Positions 4,970-10,155 of a DNA stretch of 64,000 nt are shown in pieces (position 1 is the stretch's first letter; each line of letters opens with the position of its first letter). The DNA is from Promethearchaeota archaeon. Lineage in GTDB: Archaea > Asgardarchaeota > Lokiarchaeia > Sigyniarchaeales > SOKP01. A model generated the notes under the pieces. That model saw nothing but the letters and a program-made list of their open reading frames with translations, did no database searches and had not been told where the DNA came from. The translations under genes were made by a program, and so were the position numbers. The DNA is taken from contig JAUVXW010000010.1 of NCBI GenBank assembly GCA_030603385.1, positions 1-64,000 of the forward strand. The letters run 5' to 3'.

Positions 4970-5398
4970 CTAGATATCTAGCAAGGATAAATCAAATCGA
5001 GGATCAATTACCCGATTTAGCTTTTTATCAATTTCAAAGATGTACACCTCACCTGTTATTGAGACTATACTTGGTTGAAATAAATGACCTCCAAATATAT
5101 TATAGTCTTTAGTTCCTATAGAAATATGAAGGTGAACTATTGGTTCTCCATCTTTAAATGATATATTACCCATACATGAAACTAATTCAACATACTCATC
5201 AAATGTCTTTTTCAAATATTCTTTTGAATCAATGTCTAAATATCCTAAAGTGTATTTCTTCAAAGCTCCTATACAATTAATTAAACCCGATTTGAGATTA
5301 TGGATTTTTATCATTTGGATTATTGAATCAATTAAATCTTCATCTGGCTCAACTTTACCAACTATTACCCGTTTAATATTAGTTTGGATACTTTTCAA
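4970..5398 (-). CDS. PPC-domain (DUF296) protein
   Basis: Motifs ELVSCMGNIS, VHLHISIG and FGGHL. Confidence 0.88.
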   Translation of the reverse strand: MKSIQTNIKRVIVGKVEPDEDLIDSIIQMIKIHNLKSGLINCIGALKKYTLGYLDIDSKEYLKKTFDEYVELVSCMGNISFKDGEPIVHLHISIGTKDYNIFGGHLFQPSIVSITGEVYIFEIDKKLNRVIDPRFDLSLLDI

Positions 5399-5569
5399 GT
5401 TTATTCATCTATATGAGTTATTTATACATATCTGATAGATTCAGATTTTTTATATTTGAGCTAAAAAGGTAATTGTTATTCTTTGGTATAAAACAACCAT
5501 AATTAAAATACCATCACATTTTTAAAATTAATTAACCTTATTTATAATATAAACGTGGATGTGGATGTT

Positions 5570-5644
5570 ATGAATAAAAACACTAATTTCTTGAAATCAA
5601 TACAAAATATGATTATTATCACATCCCAAATTATTATTAGTTAA
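5570..5644 (+). promoter_or_regulatory. Putative Ile-rich leader peptide (uORF) of ileS, MNKNTNFLKSIQNMIIITSQIIIS*
   Basis: 24 codons, 7 of them Ile (two III runs), ending 155 nt before ileS; preceded by GTGGATGTGGA; complementary segments at 5620-5626 and 5683-5691; T9 tract at 5745-5753. Confidence 0.55.
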
Positions 5645-5799
5645 ATTCTTTTCTTTATAAAGCGAATTTTAATAACTCTTACTCCACATCCTGCTTCATA
5701 AACAAAGAGAATGGTAATTTAAATCCTAAAATTTCGAATAAATATTTTTTTTTATTAATTAGTTTAATGAACGAAAAAGTTACAAATATGGTGTAAAAT

Positions 5800-8655
5800 A
5801 TGTCGTATAATGAAAAAGAAATAGAACTCATCCAATTTTGGAAGGATAATAAAATTTTTGAAAAAAGTGTTGAGCAAAGACCTGAGAAAAATCCATATAT
5901 ATTCTATGATGGTCCCCCGTTTGCAACAGGATTACCGCATTACGGTCATATATTAAGTTTTGTTTCCAAAGATGTATTTCCAAGATACTGGACGATGAGA
6001 GGGTACCGTTGTGAGAGAAAGTGGGGTTGGGATTGTCATGGTCTTCCAATAGAAAGCATTTGTGAAAAAGCTCTAAATTTAAAGCGAAAGAATGAAATAT
6101 ATGAGATGGGTATATCAAATTTCAATGAATTTTGTCGATCAAAAGTACTATGGTACACTAATGAATGGAAAAATACTGTTGAACGAATGGGTAAATGGAT
6201 AGAGTTTGATAATTCCTATAAAACCATGGATAATACATATATGGAAACTGTGTGGTATATTTTTAAGAAAATCTATAATGAAGGATTTGTATATAAGGGT
6301 AAAAAAGTATTGTTTTATTGTCCTCGGTGTGAAACTCCACTTTCTAATTTCGAAATTTCTATGGATAACAGCTATAAGGATATTACTGAAGAATCTATAA
6401 CAGCAAAATTTAAGTTGAAAGAAGAACCAAGAACATTTCTTCTAGCTTGGACTACAACACCCTGGACTTTAATAGGAAATGTGGCTTTAGCCATAAATAG
6501 TGAACTGAAATATGTTAAAATAAAAGTTGATGATGAATTTTTAATTTTGATTAAAAACAAATTGGATATTATCAAAGATGAATATGAAATCATTGAAGAA
6601 TTTAAGGGAAAAGAGCTAATAAATAAAAATTATGACCCCTTATATCAGATCTCCTCCAATAGCAACGGAAATGGTCATATTGTTATTGATGGTGGTGAGG
6701 ATGTACTATCTGATGAAGGAACAGGAATTATACATCTAGCAATATACGGAGAATTTGATTATGAGATGATAAAAAAGTATGATTTGCCCATAATTCAACA
6801 TATTGATGAACATGGTGAGTTGACAAGTGGTCCGAAAGATTGGATTGGGATGTGGTTTAAAGATGTAGACGAAGAAGTCTTGGAGGACTTGAAACAGAGG
6901 AATCTTTTATTCAATTCGGAAGATTACACACATTCTTATCCATTTTGTTATAGATGTGATACCCCATTAATTTACAACGCTCTTGATGCGTGGTTTATAA
7001 ATATTCAACGAATAAAACCGCGACTCCTGGAAACCATTGAAAAAATCAAGTGGTATCCTAAAGCGATTTCTAACAGATATCAAAACATAGTTGAAACGGC
7101 TCCTGACTGGTGTATTTCTAGAAATCGGTTTTGGGCTACGGCTATACCAATTTGGTTGTGTGAGGAATGTAACGAAATTAAAGTGATTGGTTCTATTAAA
7201 GAATTACAAGAGAACGCGGTCGAAGAAGTTCCTGACAATTTAGATCTACACAGACATATAGTTGATGAGATACATATTAGATGCCCAAGTTGTAAAAAAG
7301 TCATGAATCGTATCTCCGAAGTATTTGATTGCTGGTTGGAATCAGGATCAATGCCATATGCCGCAAAACATTATCCATTTGAAAATGTGGAATGGTTTAA
7401 AACCAATTTTCCTAGCGATTTTGTTTCAGAATATATTGGACAGGTTAGAGCATGGTTCTACTATATGCATGTAATTTCAATCCTTTTATTTAACGAAATT
7501 CCTTTTAAAAATGTCGTTGTAAATGGCAATATCCTCGCTGAGGACGGAACTAAAATGTCAAAGTCAAAGAGAAATTTCCCAGATCCGAATCTAATTGTTG
7601 AAAAATATGGGGCTGATGCTTTAAGGATCTATCTTTTATCTTCGCAGTTAATGAGGGCTCAGGACTTAAACTTTAAAGAAGAGATAGTTAAGCAAGTTTA
7701 TCGAAGATTTAATTTATTGTTAATAAATGTACTAAAATTCTATTCAATGATTGAAAACAACGATCTGGCTATTAATCTAACCAGTTCAGATAATATCTTA
7801 GATAAATGGATTATTAGTATGCTTAATGTCCTAATTCGTGATGTTACTCAACGAATGGATGACTACGATACTTCAGAAGCAAGTAGGTTATTCTTTAATT
7901 TTATCGAAGATCTCTCTACCTGGTATATTAAAAACAGCAGAGATCGGTTTAAAAGTGAGAATGAAAATATAAAACTATCCGCGATGAATACATTATCGTA
8001 TATACTTTCTAATCTATCAAAACTCCTAGCTCCTCTTACTCCATTTATTTCTGAGATGATCTACCAAAAAATGAAAAAAGAAGGAATAGTTCATTTAAAT
8101 TCTGTCCATTTGGAACCTTGGCCCGTATTTAATGAAAAATTGATTAATCTTAAAATACATGAGAAAATGGTACTAACAAGAGAAATTGTAAAGAAATCAT
8201 TAGAATTAAGAGAAAATTCTAAAATTCCTGTTAGGCAGATTCTACAGAAAATAATATTAAAGGGAGGAAGTCTTAAAAATGAGTATTTAGATGTGATTGC
8301 AAGAGCTATTAATGTGAGAAATGTTATAATTGAAACGGGAGAAGAAAAGGAGCTCTTAGTTGATTTAGATACAGAAATTACATCAGAATTAAAGCTTGAA
8401 GGTATTGCGAGAAATCTAATTAGGCATTTGAATAATTATAGAAAAAAATTGAATCTATCAACAAAAAATAGAATTGATCTCTACATAACAACAAATAATA
8501 AAGAAGTCATAGAAGCACTTGAAACGCACGAGGAAAGAATTAAAAAATTGATACAGGCAGATAACATTATTAGAAATGTTGAAGATAAGATGAAAGGGAA
8601 AAAATTCAAAATAGACAACAACATAATTGAAGCATATATAGAGGTAAAAAATTAG
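5800..8655 (+). CDS. ileS: Isoleucyl-tRNA synthetase (type 2, archaeal/eukaryotic-like)
   Basis: Motifs DGPPFATGLPHYGH, GWDCHGLP, WTTTPWTL, DWCISRNRFW and KMSKS. Confidence 0.97.
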   Translation: MSYNEKEIELIQFWKDNKIFEKSVEQRPEKNPYIFYDGPPFATGLPHYGHILSFVSKDVFPRYWTMRGYRCERKWGWDCHGLPIESICEKALNLKRKNEIYEMGISNFNEFCRSKVLWYTNEWKNTVERMGKWIEFDNSYKTMDNTYMETVWYIFKKIYNEGFVYKGKKVLFYCPRCETPLSNFEISMDNSYKDITEESITAKFKLKEEPRTFLLAWTTTPWTLIGNVALAINSELKYVKIKVDDEFLILIKNKLDIIKDEYEIIEEFKGKELINKNYDPLYQISSNSNGNGHIVIDGGEDVLSDEGTGIIHLAIYGEFDYEMIKKYDLPIIQHIDEHGELTSGPKDWIGMWFKDVDEEVLEDLKQRNLLFNSEDYTHSYPFCYRCDTPLIYNALDAWFINIQRIKPRLLETIEKIKWYPKAISNRYQNIVETAPDWCISRNRFWATAIPIWLCEECNEIKVIGSIKELQENAVEEVPDNLDLHRHIVDEIHIRCPSCKKVMNRISEVFDCWLESGSMPYAAKHYPFENVEWFKTNFPSDFVSEYIGQVRAWFYYMHVISILLFNEIPFKNVVVNGNILAEDGTKMSKSKRNFPDPNLIVEKYGADALRIYLLSSQLMRAQDLNFKEEIVKQVYRRFNLLLINVLKFYSMIENNDLAINLTSSDNILDKWIISMLNVLIRDVTQRMDDYDTSEASRLFFNFIEDLSTWYIKNSRDRFKSENENIKLSAMNTLSYILSNLSKLLAPLTPFISEMIYQKMKKEGIVHLNSVHLEPWPVFNEKLINLKIHEKMVLTREIVKKSLELRENSKIPVRQILQKIILKGGSLKNEYLDVIARAINVRNVIIETGEEKELLVDLDTEITSELKLEGIARNLIRHLNNYRKKLNLSTKNRIDLYITTNNKEVIEALETHEERIKKLIQADNIIRNVEDKMKGKKFKIDNNIIEAYIEVKN

Positions 8656-8715
8656 TTTCTTTATTTTTCAATATCAAAATAAAATTACAACTCCGTAAAA
8701 TTATTATATTTTTTT

Positions 8716-10155
8716 ATGCTTTTCTTAGTTATGCTCAAAATCTATAATACAATGACAAGAGAGAAAGAAGTTTTTACACCTCTCGAAGAAGGTCATGTGA
8801 AGATCTACACTTGTGGGCAAACGGTTTACGAAAAGTGCCACATTGGCAATGCAAGAACTTACAGTGCATGGGATGTAGTAATTCGTTATTTGAGGTATAA
8901 GGGATATAAAGTACTTCATGTACAAAATTTTACAGATGTAGGTCACTTAACTGATGATGCAGATCAAGGAGAAGATAAGATTGAAAAAAGAGCTCGTGAG
9001 GAAAAAATTAATCCTTGGGAGTTAGTGGAAAGAGAGATTGAAGAATACTGGCACGTTATTGATGATTTGAATATTAATAGACCAAATATTTCTCCAAGAG
9101 CAACCTCGCTTATACCTGAGATGATTATCCTAATTAAAATTCTTTTAGATAAAGGATATGCTTATGAAGTGCAAGGAAATGTTTACTATGATATTACCAA
9201 ATTCAAGGAGTATGGGAAGCTTGCTAGATTAAAACTTGATGAAGAACAAGCAAAAGCCCGAGTTGCCCAAGACCCTCTAAAGAAAAACTATTTTGATTTT
9301 GCTCTGTGGTTGAATGCGAGAAAAGGCGATCAGGTTCATATAATGCGATGGAACTCTCCATGGGGTGAAGGTTACCCTGGTTGGCATCTTGAATGTTCTA
9401 TTATGGCTATGAAATATTTAGGAGAAACTATAGATATCCATGGCGGTGGAATTGATCATATTCCTACCCATCACCCAAATGAGATCGCTCAAGCTGAAGC
9501 TGCAACAGGTAAACAGTTTGTTCGCAATTGGATGCACGCTGAATTTATAACTTTAAATGGTAAAAAAATGAGTAAAAGCCTTGGAAATTATTTAACTGCC
9601 CGTGAACTAATTGATGAACACGGAGGGTTAGTCGTACGCATGGGGTTGGTATCTGGTCATTATAGATCAACTGTTGACTGGAATCCAGATGTTTTAGCAA
9701 ATGCAAAGAAGAATATTGAAAGAATTCAAAATAGTCTAAGTTTAATAAAAGACTCACCTGGGGGCACTAAGACTAATCTAAATCAAGCTACAGAAGAGGT
9801 AAAACAATCATTTGAAGAAGCTATGGATGATGATTTCAACATTCCAAAAGCGCTTGCTGCAATTCACGAATTTATTCGACAAATTAACTCATCACTAGAT
9901 AATAAAAAAGAAATTCTCAATAGAGCAGGTGAAACACTTACTGAATTGCTGGGAGTTTTAGGACTTGATTTCACTAAAAGGAAAGGAATGGACGATGCAA
10001 AAATAAATGAACTAATGGAACTCATAATTACTATTAGAGAAAATGCAAGAAAGGGAAAGAACTATGAATTGAGTGATCAAATTAGAGAAAAATTGCGAGC
10101 TGTAGGCATTCAAATAGAGGATGCTGAAAATGGACCACGTTGGAAAATGATTTAG
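8716..10155 (+). CDS. cysS: Cysteinyl-tRNA synthetase (true start probably ATG 8731, MLKIYNT)
   Basis: Motifs CGQTVY..CHIGN, GYPGWHLECS, DIHGGGIDH..HH.NE and KMSKSLGN. Confidence 0.97.
   Translation: MLFLVMLKIYNTMTREKEVFTPLEEGHVKIYTCGQTVYEKCHIGNARTYSAWDVVIRYLRYKGYKVLHVQNFTDVGHLTDDADQGEDKIEKRAREEKINPWELVEREIEEYWHVIDDLNINRPNISPRATSLIPEMIILIKILLDKGYAYEVQGNVYYDITKFKEYGKLARLKLDEEQAKARVAQDPLKKNYFDFALWLNARKGDQVHIMRWNSPWGEGYPGWHLECSIMAMKYLGETIDIHGGGIDHIPTHHPNEIAQAEAATGKQFVRNWMHAEFITLNGKKMSKSLGNYLTARELIDEHGGLVVRMGLVSGHYRSTVDWNPDVLANAKKNIERIQNSLSLIKDSPGGTKTNLNQATEEVKQSFEEAMDDDFNIPKALAAIHEFIRQINSSLDNKKEILNRAGETLTELLGVLGLDFTKRKGMDDAKINELMELIITIRENARKGKNYELSDQIREKLRAVGIQIEDAENGPRWKMI

Follow-up and report, generated by a model that had tools for sequence, protein, structure and literature searches.

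A putative isoleucine-sensing leader upstream of a second isoleucyl-tRNA synthetase gene in Asgard archaea

We report a conserved leader element, comprising a tiny reading frame that always ends in three ATT isoleucine codons and is set inside an RNA predicted to fold in two mutually exclusive ways, which precedes a second isoleucyl-tRNA synthetase (IleRS) gene in about 40 Asgard archaeal genomes. It resembles the ribosome-based amino-acid gauges of bacteria, and our literature searches found no published report of such a leader in archaea. The weight of the evidence favors, with moderate confidence, a sensor of Ile-tRNA charging of the leader-peptide attenuator type, though its translation, the stalling of ribosomes on it and its output step are inferred.

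The leader and the gene it precedes

The element lies in a 64,000-nucleotide window (positions 1 to 64,000, forward strand) of contig JAUVXW010000010.1 of a Promethearchaeota archaeon (GCA_030603385.1). An earlier note, based on this sequence alone, had described an Ile-rich upstream ORF (uORF) before ileS, a purine-rich segment complementary to two downstream segments, and two T-rich tracts, and had read them as a possible attenuator in an Asgard archaeon. We find that this observation holds, with every one of these features present in the sequence, and that it is considerably strengthened by comparative analysis. The Asgard affiliation also holds, close homologues being named Lokiarchaeota, Promethearchaeota and Hodarchaeota. 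The features of the locus are as follows:

5512..5529 (+), conserved BRE/TATA-like block 1 (..ATTTTTAAAA..), the candidate promoter of the leader, which would put the start near 5550-5553
5536..5553 (+), conserved AT-rich block 2 (TTTATAAT at 5541-5548), either the melted region and initiator of promoter 1 or an alternative TATA box giving a leaderless uORF
5555..5565 (+), segment A (GTGGATGTGGA; GGATGTGGA at 5557-5565), SD-like, 5 nt before the uORF ATG, the shared 5' strand of helices A:B and A:C
5567..5573 (+), 5' strand of helix S (GTTATGA, containing the uORF start codon), pairing with 5670-5676
5570..5644 (+), leader ORF of 24 codons plus stop (MNKNTNFLKSIQNMIIITSQIIIS*, 7 Ile)
5620..5626 (+), segment B (CACATCC), inside the uORF just 5' of the Ile run, pairing with A
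5630..5638 (+), ATT ATT ATT, the proposed stall site
5643..5669 (+), local hairpin H (5643-5652 with 5660-5669), whose 5' arm overlaps the uORF stop codon
5650..5664 (+), 5' strand of the long helix P2, extending from 5645 in this sequence
5670..5676 (+), 3' strand of helix S (TAATAAC)
5683..5691 (+), segment C (TCCACATCC), in the 27-29-nt loop of P2, pairing with A
5692..5706 (+), 3' strand of P2, abutting C directly and extending to 5712 in this sequence
5745..5753 (+), T9 tract, the candidate oligo-U termination or pause site of the leader
5790..5793 (+), GGTG, the Shine-Dalgarno (SD) sequence of the IleRS paralog
5800..8655 (+), ileS2, a 951-aa type-2 (eukaryote/archaeal-like) IleRS paralog
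8716..10155 (+), cysS, possibly co-transcribed with ileS2

The product of the downstream gene scores 830 bits against TIGR00392 (cut-off 621), contains the class I catalytic, anticodon-binding and DUF5915 domains in Pfam searches, and has type-2/cytoplasmic IleRS as its best solved relatives. However, contrary to the earlier note, it is not the organism's only ileS, nor the housekeeping one, but an accessory, patchily distributed second paralog, present in 38 of 135 genomes of the family. The second IleRS (at G000:C54, in our numbering of genomes and contigs) also passes TIGR00392, and the canonical IleRS, on another contig, has no such leader. A gene for CysRS, identified by a Pfam match, follows the paralog in 13/13 orthologous loci.

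A covariance-model search recovered the element as a single copy upstream of the orthologous gene in 38 of 151 genomes of the order, with none in the other 113 and no copy away from ileS2. In the search of the 135-genome family these are the genomes that carry the paralog at 68% identity or more, and one further genome (G096) has the leader beside a paralog cut off by the contig end. In all, the element recurs as one copy per genome in all 41 related loci examined, each copy upstream of the same gene and with the uORF and the pairings kept. The in-frame Ile-run uORF is conserved across two genera and in a metagenomic ortholog of 66% identity. More distant orthologs at 56-60% identity (loci L079, L080 and L082) have no such leader. 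Exact-protein look-ups returned metagenomic contigs only, which say nothing about transcript ends.

Conservation of the leader ORF

Within this genome alone the uORF is only mildly unusual: of 4064 intergenic ATG sORFs of 10-40 codons, 127 contain III, 93 have 7 or more Ile, 9 have two III runs and 21 have III in the last four codons. Hence, the caution in the earlier note that ATT runs arise easily in AT-rich DNA is correct, and the decisive evidence is comparative. Conservation among relatives, which the note had set as a test, is borne out: the uORF, which lies 155 nt before ileS2 on the same strand, stays open in 37/37 loci, with 0 stops in its frame against 134 and 82 in frames +1 and +2, each of which carries stops in all 37. 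Its indels are multiples of three, its length ranges from 20 to 25 codons, its stop may be TAA, TAG or TGA, and one locus starts with GTG. The N-terminal codons drift without strong codon periodicity (entropy by codon position 0.78, 0.83 and 0.90), as expected for a leader peptide. Conversely, ATT ATT ATT, one or two codons before the stop, is identical at the nucleotide level in 41/41 loci, even though Ile codons elsewhere in the uORF use ATA, ATT and ATC freely and the genome uses ATT at 51%, ATA at 34% and ATC at 15%. Each peptide has 5-10 Ile. In this assembly aragorn found only 13 tRNAs and no tRNA-Ile.

One alternative is that the element is an independent small gene or a dual-function small RNA, encoding a 24-residue hydrophobic peptide (..NMIKIISTIIII) with its own promoter and T-tract terminator, which sits beside ileS2 only because the two travel together as a cassette, with ileS2 having its own promoter in the AT-rich spacer. 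The T-tract could simply end a short transcript of about 200 nt, TATA-like sequence lies between the leader and ileS2, the spacer varies from 70 to 230 nt, and the C-terminal half of the peptide is fairly conserved. However, the first two thirds of the peptide drift with little codon periodicity, and what is invariant is the codon triplet and the RNA segments rather than a protein motif. Moreover, the absence of the element away from ileS2 in 151 genomes speaks against it, and the match between Ile codons and an Ile enzyme, repeated as Leu codons before leuA (see below), would be unexplained. We consider this alternative unlikely.

We also searched this genome for other cognate leaders. None was found before metG or before five class II synthetase genes, and seven sORFs with runs of T, M, H, P or V precede unrelated genes. 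Only leuA was positive: a reading frame ending in LLLL* precedes it in this genome and 12 relatives.

Alternative and covarying helices

The GC-containing blocks, which the earlier note had rated the stronger signal, are not chance. GGATGTGG is four times over-represented genome-wide, but almost all copies are in coding sequence; only 6 intergenic copies occur in 3.9 Mb, and 2 of them are here. It is identical in 40 of 41 loci, and the exception (locus L083) has AGATGTGG, a G-to-A change matched by C-to-U in both partners. Both alternative pairings of GGAUGUGGA proposed in the note are conserved with compensatory changes. A:B is 95-99% paired, with wobble-compatible changes (alignment pair 8:80 is UA 23, UG 7, CG 6), while A:C is 99% paired, with two compensatory pairs (G-C to A-U in L083; A-U to U-A in locus L060).

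The best-supported helix is one that the note did not describe: P2, a 15-bp stem (5650-5664 with 5692-5706) whose loop displays TCCACATCC and which excludes the long-range A:C pairing, giving a predicted two-state switch. It is 91-92% paired, against 50% or less when slid, and 6-8 of its pairs have compensatory changes, which 0/500 shuffles reach. Taken together, A:B and P2 are 92% paired, with 11 pairs showing double changes and 43 such cells against 10.8 +/- 2.9 in shuffles (0/500 reaching this), although, the relatives being kin, many compensatory cells trace to few events, chiefly the split between the two genera. Hairpin H, with 87% of cells paired and one compensatory pair, competes with P2 for 5650-5664. 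Helix S is more weakly supported, with 77% of cells paired (pair 20:132 is CG 18, UA 9, UG 6). B ends 3 nt before the AUU run, and H and P2 begin at the stop codon.

Partition-function folding of full leaders gives either A:B with the P2 core or A:C, never both, and the forced folds differ by about 2 kcal/mol on average. For the sequence of this window the MFE is fold 1 and the centroid is fold 2, but the leader folds no better than shuffles (z = -0.21). The predicted unpaired probability of the ileS2 SD is 0.32 against 0.37 in the two forced folds, and RNAalifold finds no conserved helix between P2 and ileS2.

These helices also bear on the possibility that the leader is a structured operator read by a factor rather than by a ribosome, either the IleRS protein itself, as ThrRS reads the thrS operator, or uncharged tRNA-Ile, as in a T-box. 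In this view the AUU triplet and the UGGA/UCCA blocks would be contact sites and the open frame would be secondary. The invariance of AUUAUUAUU at the nucleotide level, stricter than coding alone requires, the bistability and large displayed loop of the RNA, and the common T-box control of bacterial ileS genes (PMC1262725; 10.1101/2022.02.09.479832) are compatible with it. However, an Rfam scan of 5000-6200 at E up to 10 gave no T-box hit, no tRNA-like anticodon loop was seen, and the frame is kept open through in-frame indels and changes of start and stop codon in 37/37 loci, which an untranslated operator would not require. The positions of B and of H relative to the Ile run and the stop codon fit ribosome footprints. 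We hence regard this possibility as improbable. The same scan gave only three weak, sub-threshold hits to C/D snoRNA families on the + strand, the best with 23.8 bits against a gathering score of 39 (E = 0.11). Although 5559-5629 has a terminal stem (A:B), there is no CTGA D box or TGATGA C box in 5557-5626 and the stretch is conserved as an open reading frame. These missing boxes contradict a C/D-box guide RNA, which is extremely unlikely.

Candidate promoter, ribosome-binding and termination signals

Block 1 is conserved in the alignment of 37 sequences; its role as a promoter is inferred. As 16S is absent from this assembly, the 16S 3' end was read from a same-genus genome (GGAUCACCUCCU). 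GGTG at 5790-5793 is complementary to it, and SD 4-mers peak at this distance genome-wide. A caveat concerns block 2: TATA-like hexamers peak at -32..-28 before ATGs genome-wide, and TTTATA lies at -29 from the uORF ATG, as in about 200 leaderless-type genes of this genome. A leaderless start is therefore possible and would leave A untranscribed; covariation just 5' of GGATGTGGA (2 nt upstream of the block) argues against this but does not exclude it.

In a related alternative, GGATGTGG and its inverted copies would be DNA sites for a transcription factor at a leaderless uORF promoter, the first copy lying between the TATA box and the start, where archaeal repressors often bind, with the RNA pairings as a by-product. 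However, the motif has no other intergenic copies that would define a regulon, the wobble-compatible (G-U) variation in B and C preserves RNA pairing but not a DNA motif, P2, which does not involve the motif, covaries strongly, and a G-rich octamer at -13..-6 occurs in only 4 of 206 leaderless-type promoters. This alternative is very unlikely.

Of the two T-rich tracts pointed out in the earlier note, that at 5646-5656 is a helix strand rather than a terminator-like tract, and only the T9 tract at 5745-5753 is conserved in position. A T-run of 5 or more starts 32-55 nt after P2 in 34/41 loci (background 50%), and a run of 7 or more occurs in 18/41 (background 12%); six sequences of the second genus have no T-run of 5 or more. 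The distance from P2 is kept even where ileS lies about 230 nt away. P2 itself is followed by an A-rich stretch, with the T-tract about 40 nt further on, so that there is no bacterial-type terminator with a hairpin immediately followed by a U-tract. Archaeal termination does not require a hairpin, and the bacterial criterion may not apply.

Functional interpretation

We propose that the stretch from about 5550 to 5755 is a cis-acting leader of the ileS2(-cysS) transcript that gauges charged tRNA-Ile(GAU) through a translating ribosome. The RNA would start a few bases before GUGGAUGUGGA (A), which would also serve as the SD of the leader ORF. When Ile-tRNA is scarce, the first ribosome would stall on AUU AUU AUU with its footprint covering B, leaving A free to pair with C, helped by helix S, which would hide the uORF start, while H forms at the stop codon; as C abuts the 3' strand of P2, A:C would prevent P2. 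When Ile-tRNA is plentiful, the ribosome would run to the stop codon, uncovering B so that A:B forms and masking the 5' arm of H so that P2 forms. The chosen fold would then set how many polymerases pass the oligo-T tract and reach ileS2, with stalling expected to increase read-through. The analysis establishes the conservation of the element, the maintenance of the ORF, the invariant AUU triplet, the covariation of A:B, A:C and P2, and the exclusive linkage to ileS2. In contrast, translation of the uORF, stalling on it, the transcription start, the joining of leader and gene in one transcript, the direction of control, and termination as the controlled step, whether intrinsic at oligo-U (read-through of the T9 tract being our best guess) or by FttA/aCPSF1, are inferred from sequence alone. 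The interpretation in the earlier note of a ribosome-stalling sensor is partly supported.

A more far-reaching possibility, which we hold as somewhat less likely than not, is that this is a genuine archaeal ribosome-mediated attenuator working without a bacterial-type terminator, in which a pioneer ribosome on the AUU triplet chooses the fold and thereby sets read-through of an oligo-U or FttA/aCPSF1 site. It would switch on a spare IleRS (with CysRS) when the main enzyme cannot keep tRNA-Ile charged, for instance under a natural IleRS inhibitor, as IleRS2 is induced in Bacillaceae. Together with the Leu leader before leuA, it would mark a lineage-wide leader-peptide control system in Asgard archaea. 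Leader-peptide attenuation is the textbook use of coupled transcription and translation in bacteria, and the comparative evidence here is unusually complete for an uncultured lineage. If the element works as proposed, ribosome-RNA polymerase coupling is used for regulation in the archaeal relatives of eukaryotes, a defined 170-nt element is at hand on which archaeal termination (oligo-U or FttA) can be studied, and a second aminoacyl-tRNA synthetase is held in reserve under a charging sensor.

Comparison with known systems

In the translational attenuation of ermC/cat, a stalled ribosome frees the SD of the downstream gene. Similarly, stalling here would release a segment (A) that captures an SD-complementary segment (C, which resembles the 16S 3' end). 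However, the predicted accessibility of the ileS2 SD hardly changes between the folds, and the spacer is unconserved and varies in length, which argues, though not decisively, against direct SD sequestration. In tnaC-type leaders controlling Rho-dependent termination, tnaC senses free tryptophan through the nascent peptide at the stop codon, whereas here the signal would be codon-specific starvation. If the output is FttA/aCPSF1-dependent termination, which is pure inference, a ribosome in a leader ORF would likewise control a factor's access to naked RNA before a distant release site.

T-box leaders of bacterial ileS (PMC1262725; 10.1101/2022.02.09.479832) have the same logical task of raising IleRS when tRNA-Ile charging falls, and the Bacillaceae case also has a constitutive IleRS1 and an inducible IleRS2; however, sensing here would be by a ribosome on Ile codons and not by tRNA binding to the RNA. 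The topology is that of trpL among the enterobacterial ilvL/ivbL, leuL, trpL and hisL attenuators: stall codons lie just upstream of segment 2, the stop codon abuts segment 2, and 2:3 (here H) competes with 3:4 (here P2). Those leaders control biosynthetic operons and end in a proven intrinsic terminator, while here the gene proposed to be regulated is a spare IleRS and the output step is inferred. Finally, in the leader-peptide transcription attenuators before synthetase genes, such as E. coli pheM-pheST and the predicted leuS and trpS attenuators of Streptomyces (PMC1262725), a short leader ORF with tandem cognate codons likewise lies directly upstream of the matching synthetase gene, with mutually exclusive helices placed so that the ribosome's position chooses the fold. 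The present element differs in belonging to an archaeon, with no sigma-70 polymerase and no known hairpin-dependent terminator, in that the helix analogous to the 3:4 terminator (P2) has a 27-29-nt loop and is not followed by U's, and in that the 5' end of the RNA, which is the uORF's own SD, would take part in the switch.

Features of the locus and its two isoleucyl-tRNA synthetase genes

The observation made in the earlier note from the sequence alone was confirmed, with every element that it listed found at the position it gave. The elements of this region of the window are as follows.

5557-5565: GGATGTGGA, hereafter segment A
5570-5644: 24-codon ORF encoding MNKNTNFLKSIQNMIIITSQIIIS*, the uORF
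5620-5626: CACATCC, complementary to A and lying between the two Ile runs, hereafter segment B
5646-5656: T-rich stretch
5683-5691: TCCACATCC, also complementary to A, hereafter segment C
5745-5753: T-rich stretch
5800-8655: class I synthetase ORF (ileS2)
8716 onwards: cysS

Genes for a PCC-domain protein and Ras-family GTPases lie divergently upstream. The synthetase passes the NCBIfam isoleucine--tRNA ligase model TIGR00392 (830 bits, cut-off 621), and its best solved relatives are type-2/cytoplasmic IleRS. As its close homologues are labelled Lokiarchaeota, Promethearchaeota, Hodarchaeota and similar, the Asgard assignment holds. The genome (G000) is a 3.9-Mb, 58-contig assembly with 30.8% G+C.

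We found that this gene is one of two bona fide IleRS genes in the genome. The other (contig C54:4357-7341) codes for a protein of 1049 aa, shares 33% identity with the 951-aa form encoded at 5800-8655, and also passes TIGR00392 (789 bits). The long form was recovered in 24 of the 25 same-genus genomes sampled, the exception having no IleRS match of either kind, whereas the 951-aa form is patchy, being found at 68% identity or more in 38 of 135 genomes of the family, namely 29 of this genus and 9 of a second genus. The next relatives of the latter, at 56-60% identity, are labelled Micrarchaeota, which suggests an accessory, possibly transferred, enzyme. The region upstream of the canonical gene has no Ile-run leader. 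The gene for the paralog is followed by cysS in 13 of 13 orthologous loci; nevertheless, the 60-nt spacer between them (8656-8715) holds T-runs (T5, T7) and TATA-like sequence, and cysS may therefore have its own promoter. A Pfam tRNA-synt_1 search of the genome recovered only the two ileS genes, metG and cysS, with no valS or leuS, which may be missing from the 94%-complete assembly; likewise, no 16S rRNA was found and aragorn called only 13 tRNAs.

The translation start of ileS2 also varies. In about 19 of 37 orthologs (window 5790-5802 and the same place in loci L035-L066), ATT or ATA stands at the position corresponding to the ileS2 ATG of this window, with GGTG 6 nt upstream. In most of these the GTG inside GGTG is in frame and is probably the start, since the annotated products have 954 aa, but in two of the loci (L038 and L047) a TAA follows that GTG, leaving ATT as the only candidate start.

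Conservation of the element and its reading frame

To assess chance occurrence within a single genome, we masked ORFs of 90 aa or more and listed all intergenic ATG ORFs of 10-40 codons. Of 4064 such ORFs, 127 contain III, 93 have at least 7 Ile, 21 have III within the last four codons and 9 have two III runs. Hence, an Ile-rich mini-ORF alone is weak evidence, as the earlier note had itself cautioned. The GC-containing blocks are different: GGATGTGG has 111 copies genome-wide, against about 28 expected from base composition, but nearly all are inside ORFs and only 6 fall outside long ORFs, of which 2 are the pair seen here. Two of the few copies outside long ORFs sit in Cys-rich contexts that read like Gly-Cys-Gly motifs.

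A DNA search of the family, followed by a covariance-model search, recovered exactly one copy of the element per genome in 38 of 151 genomes of the order, and no copy in the other 113. These are the genomes that hold the paralog, plus one (G096) in which a contig end cuts the paralog short. Two genomes missed by BLASTN were found to carry the leader on inspection. A metagenomic ortholog with 66% protein identity also has it, about 370 nt before its gene, whereas orthologs at 56-60% identity do not. Segment A, the ATT triplet near the end of the uORF and segment C are almost invariant, while the flanks and the first two thirds of the uORF vary freely.

In 37 loci the frame from the start codon is open, with 0 stops, while the other two frames carry 134 and 82 stops and are interrupted in all 37. 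The lengths are 20, 22, 23, 24 and 25 codons, so that every indel is a multiple of three; the stop codon is TAA, TAG or TGA, and one locus has GTG for ATG. All 37 peptides, and those of four loci added later, end in III followed by at most one more residue. These three codons are ATT in all 41 sequences, even though Ile codons elsewhere in the frame are ATA 58, ATT 43 and ATC 31, and the genome as a whole uses ATT 51%, ATA 34% and ATC 15%. Codon-position entropy in codons 2-15 is nearly flat (0.78, 0.83, 0.90). Thus, the frame and the Ile codons are selected, not the peptide, which is the signature of a leader peptide rather than of a small protein.

Covarying helices and alternative folds

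We next examined the potential RNA pairings on a 41-sequence alignment, unless another count is given. The helices are as follows.

A:B: segment A with segment B, extending to 9 bp
A:C: segment A with segment C
Helix S: the uORF start codon region with 5670-5676, a weaker extension of A:C
Hairpin H: 5643-5652 with 5660-5669
P2: 5650-5664 with 5692-5706, 15 bp, extending to 5645 and 5712 in this sequence

A:B is 95% paired and the variation in B is wobble-compatible; the pair two bases 5' of GGAUGUGG runs U-A 23, U-G 7 and C-G 6. A:C is 99% paired, with two compensatory pairs. In the most divergent genome (L083) A reads AGAUGUGGA, and both partners have the matching C-to-U change, such that this single event supports both alternative pairings at once. 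Helix S is 77% paired, with one covarying pair. The best-supported helix is P2, which the earlier note did not list. Its 27-29-nt loop displays C, and it is the MFE of the 3' half in most of the 37 loci. It is 91-92% paired against 50% or less when slid, with 6-8 pairs showing compensatory changes, and no shuffle in 500 reaches this. The local hairpin H uses part of the same strand and is 87% paired.

As C is followed at once by the 3' strand of P2, the connecting loop of a pseudoknot would have 0-1 nt to span a 9-bp helix, and on that ground we infer that A:C and P2 are mutually exclusive. Folding agrees with this: in partition functions of the full leaders, either A:B and the P2 core are both probable or A:C is probable, but never both. 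The two forced folds differ by about 2 kcal/mol on average, with either one favored depending on the species, and for this window the MFE is A:B plus P2 while the centroid is A:C plus H. The leader of this window is no more stable than shuffled sequence (z = -0.21); hence, the case rests on covariation, not on energy. 

Transcription start and candidate output site

Two conserved AT-rich blocks precede A. The first (5512-5529) has a BRE-like CGAAA in relatives and would start the RNA near 5550, placing A within it. The second has TTTATA at -29 from the uORF ATG, where TATA-like hexamers peak before leaderless genes in this genome, and a start directed by it would leave A untranscribed. Genome-wide, the contexts of ATG starts show two populations, with SD-like 4-mers peaking at -17..-11 and TATA-like hexamers at -32..-28; the lineage therefore seems to use both SD-led and leaderless mRNAs. 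The leaderless reading is argued against by the covariation 2 nt 5' of the G-rich block, by the wobble-type variation in B and C, and by the rarity of a G-rich octamer at -13..-6 in leaderless-type promoters (4 of 206). We consider it likely, though by no means certain, that A is transcribed.

Downstream, the SD of ileS2 (GGTG, 5790-5793) is predicted to be about equally accessible in both folds, and the spacer is unconserved and varies from 70 to 230 nt, which argues against direct translational masking and for a decision taken inside the leader. A T-run of 5 or more starts 32-55 nt after P2 in 34 of 41 loci (background 50%), and a run of 7 or more occurs in 18 of 41 (background 12%); six loci of the second genus lack a T-run of 5 or more. 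As the T-run keeps this distance in the ortholog whose gene lies about 230 nt away, it belongs to the leader rather than to the ileS2 promoter. We propose that it is the oligo-U termination or pause site, whether the termination there be intrinsic or dependent on FttA/aCPSF1.

A proposed mechanism

B ends three bases before the ATT run, and a ribosome waiting for Ile-tRNA at 5630-5638 would cover B, whereas one at the stop codon would not. H and P2 start at the stop codon; a terminating ribosome would mask the 5' arm of H and leave the P2 strand free to meet its 3' partner. In this view, stalling would favor A:C (with S) plus H, while free passage would favor P2 followed by A:B. This is the topology of the trp leader, with stall codons before segment 2 and 2:3 competing against 3:4, to which is added a 5' segment that is also the SD-like site of the uORF; the 16S 3' end in a same-genus genome is GGAUCACCUCCU. 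The interpretation of the earlier note, a ribosome-stalling sensor of Ile-tRNA charging, is supported in its core, a conserved Ile-codon leader ORF embedded in a covarying two-state RNA dedicated to an IleRS gene. In contrast, expression of the leader, stalling upon it, its co-transcription with ileS2, a response to starvation, the step that the fold would control and the direction of that control are inferred.

A sister element

In the same genome, a 36-codon ORF ending LDLDLLLL*, with four TTA codons before the stop, lies 95 nt upstream of a 2-isopropylmalate synthase gene (NF002085, 570 bits, cut-off 517). The ORF is at contig C24:18119-18229 (positions 220-330 of locus L092) and the gene at C24:18325-19947. 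Leu-run frames ending LLL to LLLLLLL before the stop are kept in 12 of 13 related same-genus genomes that hold the region, making this a sister leader of the same design. Control searches were negative: seven mini-ORFs with runs of T, M, H, P or V precede unrelated genes, and six other synthetase genes have no cognate leader. We also observed a 20-codon ORF, MGSIEKIIKFFDLILINEII* (7 Ile, ending II*), at contig C52:8289-8351 (positions 140-202 of locus L093), 31 nt before a gene at C52:8383-9621 coding for a 413-aa isopropylmalate/citramalate/homocitrate-synthase-like protein that scores below all NCBIfam cut-offs. On the basis of this single sequence, it may be an Ile leader before a cimA-like gene.

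Comparison with known systems

Full-text literature searches found no archaeal leader-peptide attenuator. The element displays the leader ORF, the cognate codon run, the maintenance of frame and the competing helices expected of an attenuator, but it lacks the hairpin abutting a U-tract that is the bacterial criterion. The nearest described systems are the pheM-pheST attenuator and the predicted leuS and trpS attenuators of Streptomyces (PMC1262725). In logic, the nearest are the T-box leaders of bacterial ileS, and the Bacillaceae pair of constitutive IleRS1 and inducible IleRS2 presents a further parallel (10.1101/2022.02.09.479832).
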